Origin: an uncultured Candidatus Saccharibacteria bacterium
Lineage (GTDB): Bacteria; Patescibacteriota; Minisyncoccia; UBA6257; 2-01-FULL-56-20
Length of the DNA stretch: 64,000 nucleotides
NCBI GenBank assembly: GCA_964387675.1
Contig: CAYLWL010000002.1
Span: forward strand, 22,514-86,513
Reading direction: 5' to 3'
Shown here: positions 28,668 through 42,469 of the stretch, one piece after another
Layout of the letters: each line of letters starts with the position of its first letter
Numbering within the stretch: position 1 is the first letter of the stretch
Position numbers and translations under genes: made by a program
The notes under the pieces: model-generated
What the model saw: the letters and a program-made list of their open reading frames with translations, nothing else
The model's database searches: none
What the model was told of the DNA's origin: nothing

Positions 28668-31040
28668 ATGTTTATTTACTTCCTTATGGGTTTTATCGTA
28701 AGCGCCGTTTTGGGCGTGAGTATTTATTTTTTGGCACGGCACATCGTTCGAGGCAAGCTTTTCGCGTCTTTGGGAATGACGCTCTTGCTCATCAAGATTC
28801 CCCGCGAAACCTCCGCCCAAAACGCGCCGGAAAAAGATTTCAAAACGGAGATTAATCGATTCGAGCAGCTTTTGGGCGGGCTCGCTTCTTTGAAGAAGCC
28901 GGTTGTGTTTGAGGCGGCGGTGCCCCACGTCGGCGAGGAAATCCATTTTTATCTCGCGGTGCCCAAAAAAATGATGGAGGTAGCCATAAAACAAGTCCAG
29001 GGTTTGTGGAACGGAGCGAGCGTCGACATCGCCCCTGATGACTTCAATATCTTTAACGCCAATGGCGCGACCTCGGCCGCCTATATTATGCAGAAAGAAA
29101 ACTATGCCTTGCCGATTCGGAGTTACTTGGAACTTGGGCTCGATTCGTTCGCGTCCGTTATCGGCGGCTTTTCGAAGGTTGCCGAAATTGGCGAAGGCGC
29201 GGCGCTGCAAATTGTTCTGCGGCCCGGCCCGAAAGACGCCAAGAAAAAAATCCACGGTTTCATCCAATCCCTCAAAAAGGGCGAGCCGCTCAAAAAAGTG
29301 TTCGGCCACGAATTTCCGGTGAGTTTCTCGGAGATCGGCCAGGCCCTGAATCCCAAGAAAGAGGAAGAGAAGAAAGAGAAGATCGTCGACGAAGAGGCGG
29401 TGAAGGCGCTCGAAATGAAAATAACAAAGCCCTTATTTGAGGTGAACGTGAGGGTGGTATGCTCGGCGGGTTCCAAATTCCAGTCGGATGATATTTTGGA
29501 CGGTATCACCGCGGGTTTCAATCAATTCGGCAGTCCGAGGAGGAATGAGTTCAGGGTGGTAAAACCGAGAAACCCAAACACGGTGGCTCGCCAGTTCATA
29601 TTCCGGAATTTTGAGTCCTCGCAAAGAATGCTACTCTCTGCCGAGGAAATCGCGAGCTTCTATCATTTTCCGACGGCGCTCACCGAAACGCCTCGAATCA
29701 AATGGCTCAAGTCCAAAGAAGCCCCGCCGCCCGCAAACTTGCCCGCGAGCGGCATCCAGATAGGAGAGAGTTTATTCCGCGGCCAGACGAAGCCCGTATA
29801 TATAACACACGAGGATAGGCGGCGGCATGTGTATACCATCGGTCAGACGGGTACGGGAAAATCCACGCTTTTGGGCAATATGATTATCGAAGACATCAAG
29901 CAGGGGAGGGGCGTGGCAATCATCGATCCTCACGGCGATCTGGTGGGCAACGCCTTGGGTTTTATTCCGAAAGACCGGATTGACGACTTGATTTATTTCG
30001 ACCCCGCGGATCTTGAAAGGCCGCTTGGACTCAACATGCTGGATTATAATTTTGATCGTCCCGAAGAGAAGACATTCATCGTGAACGAGATGCAGAGTAT
30101 CTTTAACAAACTGTTCCCACCGGAGACGATGGGCCCGATGTTCGAGCAGTATATGAGGAACGCGCTTTTGCTTTTAATGGAAGACATGCCCAACGAACCG
30201 GCGACGCTCATTGAGGTCCCCAGGGTTTTTACGGACGCAGAGTACCGCGCGCGCAAACTCGAGCGGATTCAGAATCCCGTGGTCATCGATTTTTGGGAAA
30301 AAGAAGCGGTGAAGGCGGGAGGCGAAGCGTCTCTTGCCAATATGACGCCGTATATCACCTCTAAATTCAACAACTTCATTTCGAACGACTATATGCGGCC
30401 GATTATCGGCCAGGCGAAGTCGGCGTTCAATTTCAGAAAGGTGATGGATGAAGGAAAGATTTTACTCATCAATCTTTCCAAGGGAAGGATTGGAGACATC
30501 AACGCCGGACTTCTCGGCATGGTGTTCACCGGAAAGATTTTGATGGCCGCTTTGTCGAGAGTGGACATAGCCGAGGTTGAGAGGCGGCGTGACTTTAATC
30601 TCTACATAGACGAATTCCAAAACTTCACGACGGATTCCATCGCCACGATTCTCTCTGAGGCAAGAAAATACAAATTGAATCTGACGATGGCGCACCAGTT
30701 CATTGCCCAGCTCACGGAAAAAATCCGCGACGCGGTTTTCGGCAACGTCGGTTCGCAGATTGTGTTTCGCGTCGGCGTGCAGGATGCGGAGTTTTTGGTG
30801 AAGCAGTTCGAGCCGGTGTTTAGTCAGAACGATTTATTGAATATCGACAACTTGAACGCCTACGCGAAGATTTTAATCAACGGCGAAACGTCAAAACCCT
30901 TTAACATTAAAATTCTTACCACTTCCTGGGGAGCGGGCGACAAAGACATGGCCCAAAAGCTAAGGGAATACTCAAGGATGAAATACGGCATGGATCGGCA
31001 GGGGATCGAGGCGGAGATTTATAGGAGGTTGCGAGAGTAA
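28668..31040 (+). CDS. membrane-anchored P-loop ATPase of the VirD4/TraD/TraG type IV coupling-protein-like family
   Basis: N-terminal TM (FIYFLMGFIVSAVLGVSIYFL). HVYTIGQTGTGKSTLLGNMI (Walker A), then AIIDPHGDLVGNALGFIPKDRIDDLIYFDPAD, which parallels the TrwB/VirD4 block (vIvDPnGD...ilnP.d), and LYIDEFQNF (Walker B). Confidence 0.55.
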   Translation: MFIYFLMGFIVSAVLGVSIYFLARHIVRGKLFASLGMTLLLIKIPRETSAQNAPEKDFKTEINRFEQLLGGLASLKKPVVFEAAVPHVGEEIHFYLAVPKKMMEVAIKQVQGLWNGASVDIAPDDFNIFNANGATSAAYIMQKENYALPIRSYLELGLDSFASVIGGFSKVAEIGEGAALQIVLRPGPKDAKKKIHGFIQSLKKGEPLKKVFGHEFPVSFSEIGQALNPKKEEEKKEKIVDEEAVKALEMKITKPLFEVNVRVVCSAGSKFQSDDILDGITAGFNQFGSPRRNEFRVVKPRNPNTVARQFIFRNFESSQRMLLSAEEIASFYHFPTALTETPRIKWLKSKEAPPPANLPASGIQIGESLFRGQTKPVYITHEDRRRHVYTIGQTGTGKSTLLGNMIIEDIKQGRGVAIIDPHGDLVGNALGFIPKDRIDDLIYFDPADLERPLGLNMLDYNFDRPEEKTFIVNEMQSIFNKLFPPETMGPMFEQYMRNALLLLMEDMPNEPATLIEVPRVFTDAEYRARKLERIQNPVVIDFWEKEAVKAGGEASLANMTPYITSKFNNFISNDYMRPIIGQAKSAFNFRKVMDEGKILLINLSKGRIGDINAGLLGMVFTGKILMAALSRVDIAEVERRRDFNLYIDEFQNFTTDSIATILSEARKYKLNLTMAHQFIAQLTEKIRDAVFGNVGSQIVFRVGVQDAEFLVKQFEPVFSQNDLLNIDNLNAYAKILINGETSKPFNIKILTTSWGAGDKDMAQKLREYSRMKYGMDRQGIEAEIYRRLRE

Positions 31041-39233: not shown

Positions 39234-40307
39234 ATGCAAGGAATTGATTTCCCTCTGTCAAAAACTAAACAAGAATCAGGCCGCAAGTTCAACTTAAACG
39301 ATCCTCGCGATCGGCAGAGGTATTTTTCGTCGAAAGTTGGAGCGGAGATCGAAAAGCTCAAAAAGTATCTTGCGAGCGGAAAAACGTTTGTCGGCTATCT
39401 TTTGGGTAAAAAGAATTCGGGGAAAGGGACGTATTCGAAACTTTTTATGGAAGCGTTAGGAACGGATCGCGTGGGCCACGTCGCGGTGGGGGATATTGTG
39501 CGCGACGTGCACTCCGGCCTTGCCGACCCCGCGACGAAAAAAGAACTCTCTGATTTTTTGAGCAAGAACTATCGGGGGTTCCACAGTTTGGAAGAAATTG
39601 AGCAGGTTATCGAAGGGCGGAGCCAGTCGACCCTAGTCCCCACGGAGCTTATCCTTGCTCTCTTAAAGTTTGAAATCAGCAAACGCCCCCGACAAGCGCT
39701 TTTTATCGACGGCTTTCCTCGCGGCCTCGATCAGATCGGTTATTCGCTCTATTTGAAAGAGCTTTTGGGATACCGCGATGACCCGGACTTTTTCGTTTTT
39801 ATCAGTTTGCCGAATACCGTCCTCGACGAGAGGATCAAGTACCGCGTGATCTGCCCGATCTGCAAAACTCCGAGGAGCACCAAGCTGTTGGCGACGAGCG
39901 GAGCCGGCTACGACGAGGCGGCAAGAAAGTTCTATCTGATATGCGATAATCCGCCCTGCAACAAAGCGCGTATGGTTCCCAAAGAAGGAGACGAGCTGGG
40001 GATCGAGCCCATCCGCGCCCGGCTTGAAACCGACGACCAGATTTTCCGAAAGTTGCTCGAGCTCCAAGGCGTGCCGAAGGTGTATCTCCGCAACGCGGTG
40101 CCCTCCGCCGAAGCAAAAGAATACGTGGATGATTACGAACTTACTCCGGCGTACGGCTACGAGCTTGACCAAGCAACGAAGAACGTAAAGATTCTCGAGT
40201 CCCCGTGGGTCGTTGAGGATGACGACGGCATCCCGTCATACAGTTTATTACCGCCGGCGGTTGTGGTGTCGTTAATCCGGCAAGTAGTCCACGTGCTCAA
40301 ACTTTAG
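39234..40307 (+). CDS. divergent adenylate-kinase-family protein with N- and C-terminal extensions
   Basis: GYLLGKKNSGKGTYSKLF (P-loop like Adk GxPGxGKGT), FIDGFPRGLDQ (Adk NMP-binding motif), zinc LID ICPICKT...CDNPPC. 357 aa versus about 215 for canonical Adk. Confidence 0.55.
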   Translation: MQGIDFPLSKTKQESGRKFNLNDPRDRQRYFSSKVGAEIEKLKKYLASGKTFVGYLLGKKNSGKGTYSKLFMEALGTDRVGHVAVGDIVRDVHSGLADPATKKELSDFLSKNYRGFHSLEEIEQVIEGRSQSTLVPTELILALLKFEISKRPRQALFIDGFPRGLDQIGYSLYLKELLGYRDDPDFFVFISLPNTVLDERIKYRVICPICKTPRSTKLLATSGAGYDEAARKFYLICDNPPCNKARMVPKEGDELGIEPIRARLETDDQIFRKLLELQGVPKVYLRNAVPSAEAKEYVDDYELTPAYGYELDQATKNVKILESPWVVEDDDGIPSYSLLPPAVVVSLIRQVVHVLKL

Positions 40308-40315
40308 TTTTTATT

Positions 40316-40897
40316 ATGGCCGATCTTGACCCGCGTTTACATTTCGTAGTGCCGACCGCGATCGTCGTGAAAAACGGGAAATTTTTGATCGCCAAACGTG
40401 CCGCCCACGAAAAGGCGTTTCCGGATAAATGGACGGTGCCCGGAGGCAAGCTGGTGCTCCATGAATATGAGCACCTGCCACGGGGTTTTCGTGGTCGTCA
40501 TGATGACGACCACGGCGAAGGAGGGGTCGGGAGGAAAGTACAAGGTTCCTCCCGTGTAGGAGATTATTCAGAACTGAGGGTTCTGAAGGAGGAGCGAAGC
40601 GACGACCCGCAATGGTACAACGTCGTGGAGTGGGTGCTTCGAAAAGAAGTTCGCGAAGAAGTCGATTTGGAGATCGAGAAGCCGCGGTATCTTTGCGATC
40701 TGGTTTTCGTGCGGCCGGACGGCTATCCGGTGGTAACACTCTCGTACTGGGCTTTCTACAAAAGCGGAGAAGTGAAACTTTGCAAGGACTTGACCGATTA
40801 CGCCTGGGTGACGGTTGAAGAGGCGAAGCAATACGATCTCATCGACGGCATCTGGGACGAAATCAAAGAAGTGGCAGATATCGTAAAAAAAGTATAA
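40316..40897 (+). CDS. NUDIX hydrolase with about 50-aa insertion inside the Nudix box
   Basis: WTVPGGKLV...[insert]...LRKEVREEVDL. The Nudix box GGx5E...REVxEE is split by a palindrome-rich insert at 40470-40625. Confidence 0.65.
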   Translation: MADLDPRLHFVVPTAIVVKNGKFLIAKRAAHEKAFPDKWTVPGGKLVLHEYEHLPRGFRGRHDDDHGEGGVGRKVQGSSRVGDYSELRVLKEERSDDPQWYNVVEWVLRKEVREEVDLEIEKPRYLCDLVFVRPDGYPVVTLSYWAFYKSGEVKLCKDLTDYAWVTVEEAKQYDLIDGIWDEIKEVADIVKKV

Positions 40898-40911: not shown

Positions 40912-41628
40912 TTATTCTTTGAATGCTTTGATTATCGGATCGAGGTCGCCATCCAAGATTCGTACTATATTATGAAACTTTTTCCCAAGGCGGTGATCGG
41001 TGATCCGGTCGTCGGGGAAGTTGTAGGTTCTGATTTTTTCCGAGCGGTCGCCGGTGCCCACCTGTTCCCTGCGCGTTGCGCCGAGTTTTCGAGCATCCGT
41101 TTCTTTTTGGAGGTCGTAGAGTTTCGCTCGTAACACCGCCATCGCCCGCTCGCGGTTCGCGTGCTGGGCTCGTTCCACGCGCGAGGAAACGACGATGCCG
41201 GTCGGTTTGTGGAGAATTCGCACCGCGCTCTCTATCTTGTTGACGTTTTGCCCGCCGGGGCCTCCGGCGCGCGAAAAAGTTACCTCAAGGTCATTCGGGT
41301 TTATAGTTACTTCTTTCGGTTCGACTTCCGGGATAATGGCAACGGTTGCGGTTGAGGTGTGAACCCGGCCGGACTTCTCGGTGTCCGGTATCCTCTGGAT
41401 TCGGTGAACGCCGGACTCATGCCGAAGCGCCTCCAATATTCCGGCGCCGCCAACCTCGGCCACAAAAGTTTTGTACCCGTTGAGCGACGTTTGATTCGAG
41501 TCGAGAACCGCGAACGACCAGCCCCGCTTCGCGGCGTAGCGCTGGTACATTCTCGCGAGATCGCCGGCGAAGATCGCGGCTTCATCGCCGCCGACCCCTG
41601 CTCTAATTTCTAAGATAATTTTTTCCAT
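40912..41628 (-). CDS. prfA: class I peptide chain release factor, RF1-like (PDT motif), lacking N-terminal domain 1
   Basis: [26 protein letters not shown] (PxT codon-recognition motif), [22 protein letters not shown] (GGQ). Only 239 aa from MEKIIL. The 250 nt upstream is non-coding. Confidence 0.7.
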
Positions 41629-41924
41629 AATGTAGAGTATGTACGGAAATTCGCTGTTTGTCCAAATGAATAACCGCACCGCAGAGCGGTGCGGTGTCAC
41701 CGCTTAAGGATTGCGGTTATTCACCCATCCCCATTTGCTGTAAAATCTATGCATATGTACTATTTGAAGACGAAGTCGCCTTGCGGCTCTGATTGTGTAA
41801 TAGCTCAATCTCTGCCACAAATGGGGAGGGGTTTATTATTCACGCGTCGCAATTCATCCCGCCCGGGCTTCGACTGAACTCAGCCGAATGTCCAAGCGGG
41901 CGGGTATTCTTGCGAGTGAATAAT

Positions 41925-41958
41925 AAAAAATCCCCGTTTCCGGGCGGAAAGGGGGATT
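41925..41958 (-). terminator. rho-independent terminator for the membrane-protein gene at 41957-42469
   Basis: Minus strand reads aatcccccttt ccgcccgg aaacggggatttttt. Confidence 0.65.
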
Positions 41959-42469
41959 ACTTTGCGAGTTGAATCAGCTCCTGGAGTCCCAGTGCGACCA
42001 GGTACATCTTGAGGGCGCTGCCGGCGACCATCAGCACGATACACAAAATTCTATTGAGTTTGAGCGCCTTGCTTGATGCCGGTCCGAGCCACAGGAGATA
42101 CGGCACAAATCCGAAGAGCGGCATGGCGTAGTAGGGGATTTTCTTGATATAAGGGAAGTACCACTTTTCTTCCAGTTCCGATACTTCTTCTTCGTCGCGT
42201 TTTGAGGGCCAAAATCGCGTGAGGACGGGGAGGGATTTATCGGTAATCCAAAACCATAAGTAGATGTGCATGCAGTCGCAAGCGATCGCTATGCAGATCG
42301 CGGTGAACACGGGAACTTCAAGAATCAGCCACAATCCTATGCCGGTTTCTCCCTGAATCATGGTCCACACGAGCGCGCCGGCATATGCCTTGTTAAAGTA
42401 TCCGACTGCGAGCGGAAGAAGAAGCAAGAACGAAAAAAAGGCGACCCAAGCCCTTAGTTGTTTTAACAA
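41957..42469 (-). CDS. hypothetical membrane protein
   Basis: 170 aa, 4-5 TM helices. Confidence 0.4.
   Translation of the reverse strand: MLKQLRAWVAFFSFLLLLPLAVGYFNKAYAGALVWTMIQGETGIGLWLILEVPVFTAICIAIACDCMHIYLWFWITDKSLPVLTRFWPSKRDEEEVSELEEKWYFPYIKKIPYYAMPLFGFVPYLLWLGPASSKALKLNRILCIVLMVAGSALKMYLVALGLQELIQLAK

Follow-up and report, generated by a model that had tools for sequence, protein, structure and literature searches.

A release factor 1 gene lacking domain 1 and its conservation across a large clade of Parcubacteria

The window, by which we mean the whole 64,000-nucleotide stretch of metagenome-derived DNA that was analysed, carries on its minus strand a prfA-type gene whose product, a release factor 1 (RF1) of 238 amino acids, has no domain 1 (Table 1). 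The maximal open reading frame (40912..41700, minus strand) opens with a GTG and would encode 262 amino acids. The additional 24 codons show no conservation among homologues, and we place the true start at the ATG at 41628, the aligned position at which the homologues in 47 genomes also begin and on which public gene calls agree. The protein is 100% identical to a public entry, P0001, titled 'PCRF domain-containing protein [Candidatus Liptonbacteria bacterium]', and public databases label the short RF1 only in this manner ('PCRF domain-containing protein') or as 'peptide chain release factor 1'. On the far side of a non-coding interval lies a gene for a hydrophobic-looking protein; no homologue of it adjoins RF1 in any of the related loci compared.

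Three other genes in the window were noted in passing. An adenylate-kinase-like gene at 39234-40307 (plus strand) encodes 357 amino acids, far longer than is typical, with only a weak partial ADK match at profile positions 50-136; similar genes, at 58-68% identity, are found near RF1 in several Liptonbacteria loci. The NUDIX gene at 40316-40897 differs from its orthologues in two related loci (L004 and L007, 57-58% identical with one 39-residue gap) by an in-frame insert of about 39 codons (about 40484-40600, plus strand), which separates PGGK from REVxEE within the Nudix box and includes, at the DNA level, two perfect palindromes, CGTGGTCGTCAT/ATGACGACCACG and GGGAGGAA..TTCCTCCC. Further away, 28668-31040 (plus strand) encodes a 790-amino-acid protein with weak matches to HerA/DUF87, to T4SS-DNA_transf (a type IV secretion coupling-protein family) and to TraG-D_C.

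Table 1. Features of the RF1 gene, its upstream DNA and copies of the upstream element in other loci. Positions refer to the window unless a locus handle is given; aa, residues of the 238-amino-acid protein.
Feature	Position	Strand	Basis or remark
Upstream gene, hydrophobic-looking protein	41957..42469	(-)	no Pfam match; not domain 1
Intrinsic-terminator-like hairpin and T-run ending the upstream gene	41931..41950	(-)	
Conserved structured/palindromic intergenic element	41665..41920	(-)	core hairpin 41719-41836
Strong hairpin, 3' part of the intergenic element	41673-41695	(-)	
Sigma-70-like promoter, TGGACA-17-CATACT	41636..41664	(-)	consensus scan; ends 7 nt before the ATG
prfA-type gene, 238-aa RF1 without domain 1	40912..41628	(-)	ATG 41626-41628, TAA 40912-40914
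PCRF C-terminal half, aa 3-96 (RF1 domain 2, decoding)	41341..41622	(-)	Pfam PF03462 positions 101-194/194, E = 2.3e-40
Helix alpha5 tip GVGGDEA, aa 11-17	41578..41598	(-)	gapless alignment to 4v4r/4v63 RF1, offset +103
PxT 'anticodon' tripeptide (PDT), aa 81-83	41380..41388	(-)	read from sequence
RF-1 domain, aa 106-213 (domain 3 with GGQ loop and start of domain 4)	40990..41313	(-)	Pfam PF00472 positions 4-116/116, E = 4.6e-39
GGQ catalytic motif, aa 125-127	41248..41256	(-)	read from sequence
Element core copies	L010:2252-2369, L010:1016-1157, L090:5493-5612, L189:3837-3956		

The part of RF1 that is present in the protein can be delimited with some precision. Its sequence aligns without gaps to residues 86-319 of Thermotoga maritima RF1 and to residues 107-340 of Thermus thermophilus RF1, and its similarity to solved RF1 structures (E = 2e-82) is far past chance. 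An AlphaFold (AF2) model, mean pLDDT 81.5, can be superposed on RF1 as bound to the ribosome with a TM score of 0.88-0.90 (236 columns). Taken together with the Pfam matches listed in Table 1, these alignments identify the protein as domains 2, 3 and 4 of RF1, with an N-terminus only two to five residues ahead of the first strand of domain 2. What is missing is domain 1, the N-terminal three-helix bundle that contacts the L11 stalk and is needed for recycling by RF3. Positions 1-100 of the Pfam PCRF family and positions 1-112 of NCBIfam prfA are unmatched, the NCBIfam prfA models aligning only from position 105 or 113 on (113-346 of 361), so that the usual four-domain architecture is not present.

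By contrast with this N-terminal loss, the residues that read the stop codon and catalyse release are those of an ordinary RF1. In T. thermophilus numbering (residue number of the window protein + 103), the protein keeps Gly116, Glu119, Gln181, Pro184-x-Thr186, Glu187, His193 and Thr194, with Gly13 and Glu16 of the window protein corresponding to Gly116 and Glu119 in the gapless alignment; Ile192 is replaced by Val. The switch-loop segment is likewise retained. The GGQ motif does not vary across a 58-sequence alignment. The PxT motif is kept in 49/49 short-form sequences with a middle residue that is mostly K, A or T, and the GxGG[DE]EA motif at the alpha5 tip is retained among the short forms. 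Since 8 of 24 full-length sequences in the comparison have PDT as well, we regard it as an ordinary variant of the tripeptide. The original prediction for this stretch, which described an RF1 homologue with PDT and GGQ intact, devoid of domain 1 and starting at the domain 2 boundary with about 239 amino acids, was therefore close to the mark: the prfA match, the gapless alignment to domains 2-4 and the length of 238 amino acids all agree with it.

The same prediction went on to suggest a rescue factor resembling RF-H or ArfB, and here we come to a different view. Profile searches score the protein at 348-363 bits for prfA, 227 for prfB, 77 for prfH and 49 for ArfB. Note that the prfA scores do not reach the equivalog cut-offs (363.4 vs 400 for NF001859; 348.3 vs 423.25 for TIGR00019) because about 110 N-terminal residues are absent. 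The match to prfH (TIGR03072) amounts to 77.2 bits against a cut-off of 166.65 and the recognition residues are of RF1 type, which speaks against RF-H. For RF2 (prfB, TIGR00020) the 227 bits compare with a cut-off of 370, and the tripeptide is PDT, not SPF. The ArfB profile covers only aa 105-139, 35 residues around the GGQ (49.3 bits against a cut-off of 100), in a protein that does have a decoding domain. A neighbour-joining tree groups the window sequence with RF1, apart from the RF2 outgroup. Judged by its sequence, the gene is of RF1 type and is neither RF-H, ArfB nor RF2.

Gene order points in the same direction. In more than 40 loci, encompassing short, intermediate and full-length outgroup forms of RF1, the gene directly upstream on the same strand is rpmE, which encodes ribosomal protein L31; in one short subgroup trpS (tryptophanyl-tRNA synthetase) overlaps the 3' end of RF1. 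rpmE is absent from the window, where the rpmE-prfA arrangement of the relatives has been lost. This synteny among relatives supports orthology with the housekeeping prfA.

Could the short gene nevertheless be an accessory paralogue, RF-H-like or of rescue type, that works beside a full-length RF1 whose gene lies at another place in the genome? Domain 1 is missing from RF-H as well (PMC1586002), the prfA score lies under the equivalog cut-off, and the DNA sampled here represents only about 2% of each genome, so that a second prfA may lie outside it. Several observations argue against this scenario. The prfH score is less than half its cut-off and far below that for prfA, and the RF1 decoding residues are all canonical where those of RF-H are altered. 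There is no RtcB-like partner gene upstream: in the window the neighbour is the hydrophobic-looking protein, with 328 nt and a terminator in between, and in the relatives it is rpmE. Importantly, the rpmE-prfA position of the relatives' short genes is the one that full-length RF1 genes occupy in outgroups, and among 80 loci a scan, albeit one of low recall, turned up no second RF1-like locus in any assembly. We therefore consider a paralogue improbable, and the short gene is presumably the sole RF1 in its genome.

A second scenario is that domain 1 persists as a separate polypeptide that joins the short protein in trans. There is nothing direct to recommend such a split gene, although such an arrangement was at one time suggested for the gene that precedes prfH (PMC1586002). 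We compared E. coli RF1, together with N-terminal regions of at least 50 residues taken from full-length and intermediate aligned release factor sequences, by tblastn with the 1 kb upstream of the gene and with the whole window, and obtained noise only (all matches at E > 0.1 in the 1-kb target); the core of the E. coli query aligned at 46% identity, as expected. No domain-1 similarity was thus found anywhere in the window. Searching with a profile built on the reduced domain 1 of CPR bacteria gave 13 matches, and the 7 that were inspected are fragments of intermediate-length RF1, 5 of them extending into domain 2, so that no stand-alone domain-1 protein was evident among the inspected matches. 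Moreover, most relatives leave no space for an adjacent domain-1 reading frame, because their rpmE ends 8-170 nt before the RF1 ATG. A partner in trans is, in our estimation, very unlikely. The tblastn search also bears on the frameshifted domain-1 remnant that the original prediction had proposed to look for upstream; none was found, and the upstream DNA has stops in all three frames.

Equally hard to sustain is the view that the short RF1 has broadened its specificity so that it also reads UGA and replaces RF2. According to crude open reading frame calls, genes in the window end with TAA (33), TGA (19) and TAG (13). With all three codons in use as stops, the genetic code is the standard one and RF1 activity is needed. 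TGA is evidently a frequent stop, and neither RF2 nor any second release factor was found in the window or in the 202 fetched loci (related sequence amounting to 1.1 Mb, about 2% of each genome), as would be the case if RF2 had been replaced. However, failure to encounter RF2 is expected by chance precisely because so small a part of each genome was sampled, and the residues that reject G at codon position 2 (the Thr of PxT and the Gly/Glu of alpha5) are unchanged. A search for L11 by tblastn gave as its sole match an unrelated metagenome locus.

The 328 nt between the RF1 gene and its upstream neighbour (41629-41956) are non-coding, and the terminator and the hairpin that had been predicted there are both located (Table 1). 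No Shine-Dalgarno sequence precedes the RF1 ATG. Together with the spacing between the putative promoter and the start codon, this is suggestive of a prfA mRNA with little or no leader. Boxes resembling a -10 element are also seen in several relatives of the short form, 5-9 nt ahead of the ATG.

The greater part of the interval is taken up by a structured element. Compared with shuffled controls, the region 41600-41960 has a much stronger fold (z = -8.8), and 256 nt of it, 41665-41920, are 75% identical over 264 positions to L010:2202-2433, a segment of another Parcubacteria genome that adjoins rpmE at a distance of about 7.6 kb from that genome's RF1. The core of the element forms a hairpin of about 110 nt, closed by a 16-bp stem, ACCCCNCCCCATTTG...CAAATGGGGNGGGGT. 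It is also found, with a few compensatory base changes, in two metagenome contigs (L090 and L189), in one between greA and lysS and in the other next to fusA, so that its neighbours are translation genes that differ from genome to genome. A metagenome pattern scan for the stem, itself too unspecific, gave only two clear homologues among the matches listed. A covariance model detected a second copy in L010, within 1.3 kb of the first, although scores of this model on the element loci are biased by how the loci were selected. In Rfam, nothing matched the element at gathering score, and matches at a relaxed threshold were far below it. The element could be a REP/MITE-like repeat, that is, small, mobile and palindromic, or else a small RNA gene. 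It is neither part of the RF1 gene nor a relic of domain 1, and it is not specific to RF1. As a side observation, L010:1640-1738 is a partial duplicate of the N-terminus of rpmE (L31), just upstream of the intact rpmE at 1790-2041. The two copies of the element lie on either side of the gene and its partial duplicate, which suggests a local rearrangement linked to the element.

How widespread is the short form? The best 120 database relatives of the window protein (which itself is recovered at 100%) are all 238-276 amino acids long and 68-87% identical to it, and come from Liptonbacteria, Wolfebacteria and other Parcubacteria. We also scanned species-representative genomes for RF1, which yielded 80 loci. 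About 47 CPR species genomes, labelled Liptonbacteria, Wolfebacteria, Harrisonbacteria or Colwellbacteria or given generic names, have an in-frame stop 0-38 codons 5' of the start of homology and an open reading frame of 238-281 amino acids, and the N-termini of these short forms align at M-x-K-I-I-L-E. Loci from Bacteroidia, Elusimicrobia and Omnitrophota in the same scan encode the usual RF1 of 352-367 amino acids. Among closer orthologues, with proteins 66-77% identical, pN is 0.14-0.23 vs a pS of 0.68-0.84; synonymous change saturated and non-synonymous change low indicate strong purifying selection on the short RF1. Across the genomes compared, a large Parcubacteria clade has to all appearances fixed the absence of domain 1.

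Not every unusual match in these searches survived inspection. Two of the top 'representative' matches, of 477 and 481 amino acids (P0121 and P0122), are RF1 sequences with internal duplications and hence assembly artefacts. Candidates for a permuted or C-terminally extended factor (327-422 amino acids, with the core starting at residue 1-15) fared no better, as the 8 inspected are 5'-truncated fragments with aberrant C-terminal tails. With regard to taxonomy, many records titled 'uncultured Candidatus Saccharibacteria bacterium' (L001, L007, L010, L013 and others) contain an RF1 that clusters tightly with those of Liptonbacteria and Harrisonbacteria, and this title seems to serve as a general name for CPR rather than to place the organisms in Saccharibacteria proper.

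The pattern of conservation allows us to address a further reading, according to which the gene is decaying, as the original prediction had considered, or has recently been truncated by a deletion or a frameshift. A missing domain and a stretch of 328 non-coding nucleotides in the place where it should be encoded are indeed what such a history might leave behind. If that were so, however, we would not expect about 47 species to keep the short form while synonymous sites are saturated and non-synonymous change stays low, nor would we expect the catalytic and decoding motifs all to be intact. The DNA upstream, for its part, shows no detectable similarity to domain 1 and consists of a separate conserved element, copies of which occur at sites away from RF1. 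Decay is effectively refuted. There remains an assembly error, which had likewise been raised, or faulty gene calling by which the 5' part of a longer, full-length gene would have been missed. The window does come from a metagenome-assembled genome, and some database relatives, P0121 and P0122 with their internal duplications among them, are plainly artefacts. But the gene and the 332 nt upstream are identical in two independently assembled Logan contigs from different sequencing runs (SRR12113422 and SRR12113428), and the same short architecture recurs in dozens of assemblies that are unrelated, among them an 808-kb chromosome (OZ246418.1) and an 840-kb contig (JAHFLL010000001.1); the short gene is also carried by JACPTS010000001.1 (608 kb) and JACOWZ010000003.1 (645 kb). 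This leaves artefact the least credible explanation of all.

How, then, might domain 1 have been lost? An alignment of N-termini reveals forms of intermediate length. Upstream of the shared core, non-CPR bacteria have about 102-116 residues. Kaiserbacteria, Minisyncoccia and other Parcubacteria (L044, L050, L055 and L071) have about 75, helix 1 being gone, and the L064 lineage has about 55, so that these five loci together span about 55-85 residues. In Staskawiczbacteria (L036 and L078) there is an acidic N-terminal tail of about 31 residues, and two groups of short forms have no domain-1 residues at all. The presence of intermediate forms in other CPR lineages argues for stepwise erosion, in which domain 1 would have shrunk from about 107 residues to about 75, then to about 31 and finally to 0. 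In a neighbour-joining tree of the shared core, which comes with no support values, all CPR sequences form one clade, and the two groups without any domain 1 do not pair as sisters, a hint that complete loss may have occurred more than once.

Considering these results together, we think it likely that the gene encodes an ordinary class-I RF1, naturally minimised, which lost domain 1 by stepwise erosion, became fixed in this form throughout the clade and carries out release at UAA and UAG without RF3. Its specificity for these two codons is what the retained residues most likely confer. The factor would bind the A site at UAA and UAG, its domains 2 and 4 reading the stop codon by means of PxT, the alpha5 tip and the Gln, His and Thr residues. 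It would then open, so that the GGQ of domain 3 reaches the peptidyl-transferase centre, where peptidyl-tRNA would be hydrolysed and the peptide released, and would finally depart from the ribosome without RF3. We infer independence from RF3 because domain 1, through which RF3 and the L11 stalk are contacted, is absent. That such a protein can function is suggested by experiment: Mora et al. 2003, as summarised in PMC1586002, found E. coli RF1 minus domain 1 to be active in peptide release in vitro and functional in vivo, but unable to engage RF3.

It is tempting to attribute the loss of domain 1 simply to a loss of RF3, but this alone does not explain it, since the RF1 of Bacillus, Mycobacterium and Mycoplasma, all of which are without RF3, retains domain 1. 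In one survey, RF3 was absent from 72 of 191 genomes, including those of the three genera just mentioned (PMC1780047). Some factor specific to the clade has therefore probably relaxed the constraint on domain 1, perhaps the reduced ribosomes of these bacteria (PMC9297842) or slow growth. One can go a step further and imagine that termination in the whole clade does without the axis of domain 1, L11 stalk and RF3, with RF1, and possibly RF2, being minimal two-module factors that bind and leave a reduced CPR ribosome unaided. We put this forward tentatively and regard it as possible rather than probable. If it were true, the graded series of about 107, 75, 31 and then 0 residues would record how a near-universal domain became dispensable.

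In the full-text literature searched (subscription journals were not covered) we found no description of an RF1 without domain 1 in CPR bacteria. To our knowledge, essentially every bacterial RF1 and RF2 characterised so far has domain 1, also in the many bacteria that lack RF3. Loss of the domain from a housekeeping RF1 across a clade, along with intermediates in sister lineages, amounts to a natural deletion series. It shows domain 1 to be, by all indications, dispensable in nature, in line with the laboratory result. Natural short RF1s also provide a handle on how the loss of domain 1 might be compensated, be it through changes in the ribosome stalk, weaker binding of the factor or slow growth. 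Known reductions of the CPR ribosome comprise loss of L30, L9 and L1 and trimming of rRNA, and the short RF1 adds a translation factor to this list, making it relevant to research on both translation termination and genome reduction. On a practical note, short RF1s fall under the prfA equivalog cut-offs, and annotation pipelines may consequently give them generic names or miss prfA altogether.

It is instructive to set the window protein beside the systems it most resembles. Canonical RF1 (PrfA; TIGR00019 / PRK00591; structures 1RQ0 and 4V63) has domains 2, 3 and 4 that are collinear with the window protein without gaps, at an identity over the aligned region of 46% for E. coli and 49-51% for T. 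thermophilus and T. maritima. The two have in common PxT, GGQ, the alpha5 tip, the switch-loop segment and the residues that read the stop codon, as well as, in the relatives of the window gene, the rpmE-prfA order. They differ in that canonical RF1 has a domain 1 of about 105 residues, a three-helix bundle that makes the L11-stalk/RF3 contact, all of which is gone from the window protein. RF-H (PrfH; TIGR03072) resembles the window protein in having lost domain 1 while keeping a decoding-type domain and GGQ, but has altered recognition residues of its own and in every case comes with a translationally coupled RtcB-like gene upstream (PMC1586002). With ArfB / ICT1 the window protein shares the GGQ domain; ArfB / ICT1, however, has no codon-recognition domain and instead relies on its basic C-terminal tail, which enters the mRNA channel when this is empty, whereas the window protein has its decoding domain. 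The intermediate CPR forms belong to the same CPR clade, have the same core and mostly have rpmE upstream. They keep a reduced domain 1 (about 75 residues, helix 1 lost) or an acidic tail of about 31 residues, whereas the window RF1 keeps none. The engineered E. coli RF1 without domain 1 (Mora et al. 2003, cited in PMC1586002) is cut at about the same place (residue 110), keeps the same domains and is reported to retain codon specificity, release activity and function in vivo. That protein, however, is a laboratory construct in a host that possesses RF3, whereas the form found in the window appears to have been fixed naturally across a large clade.
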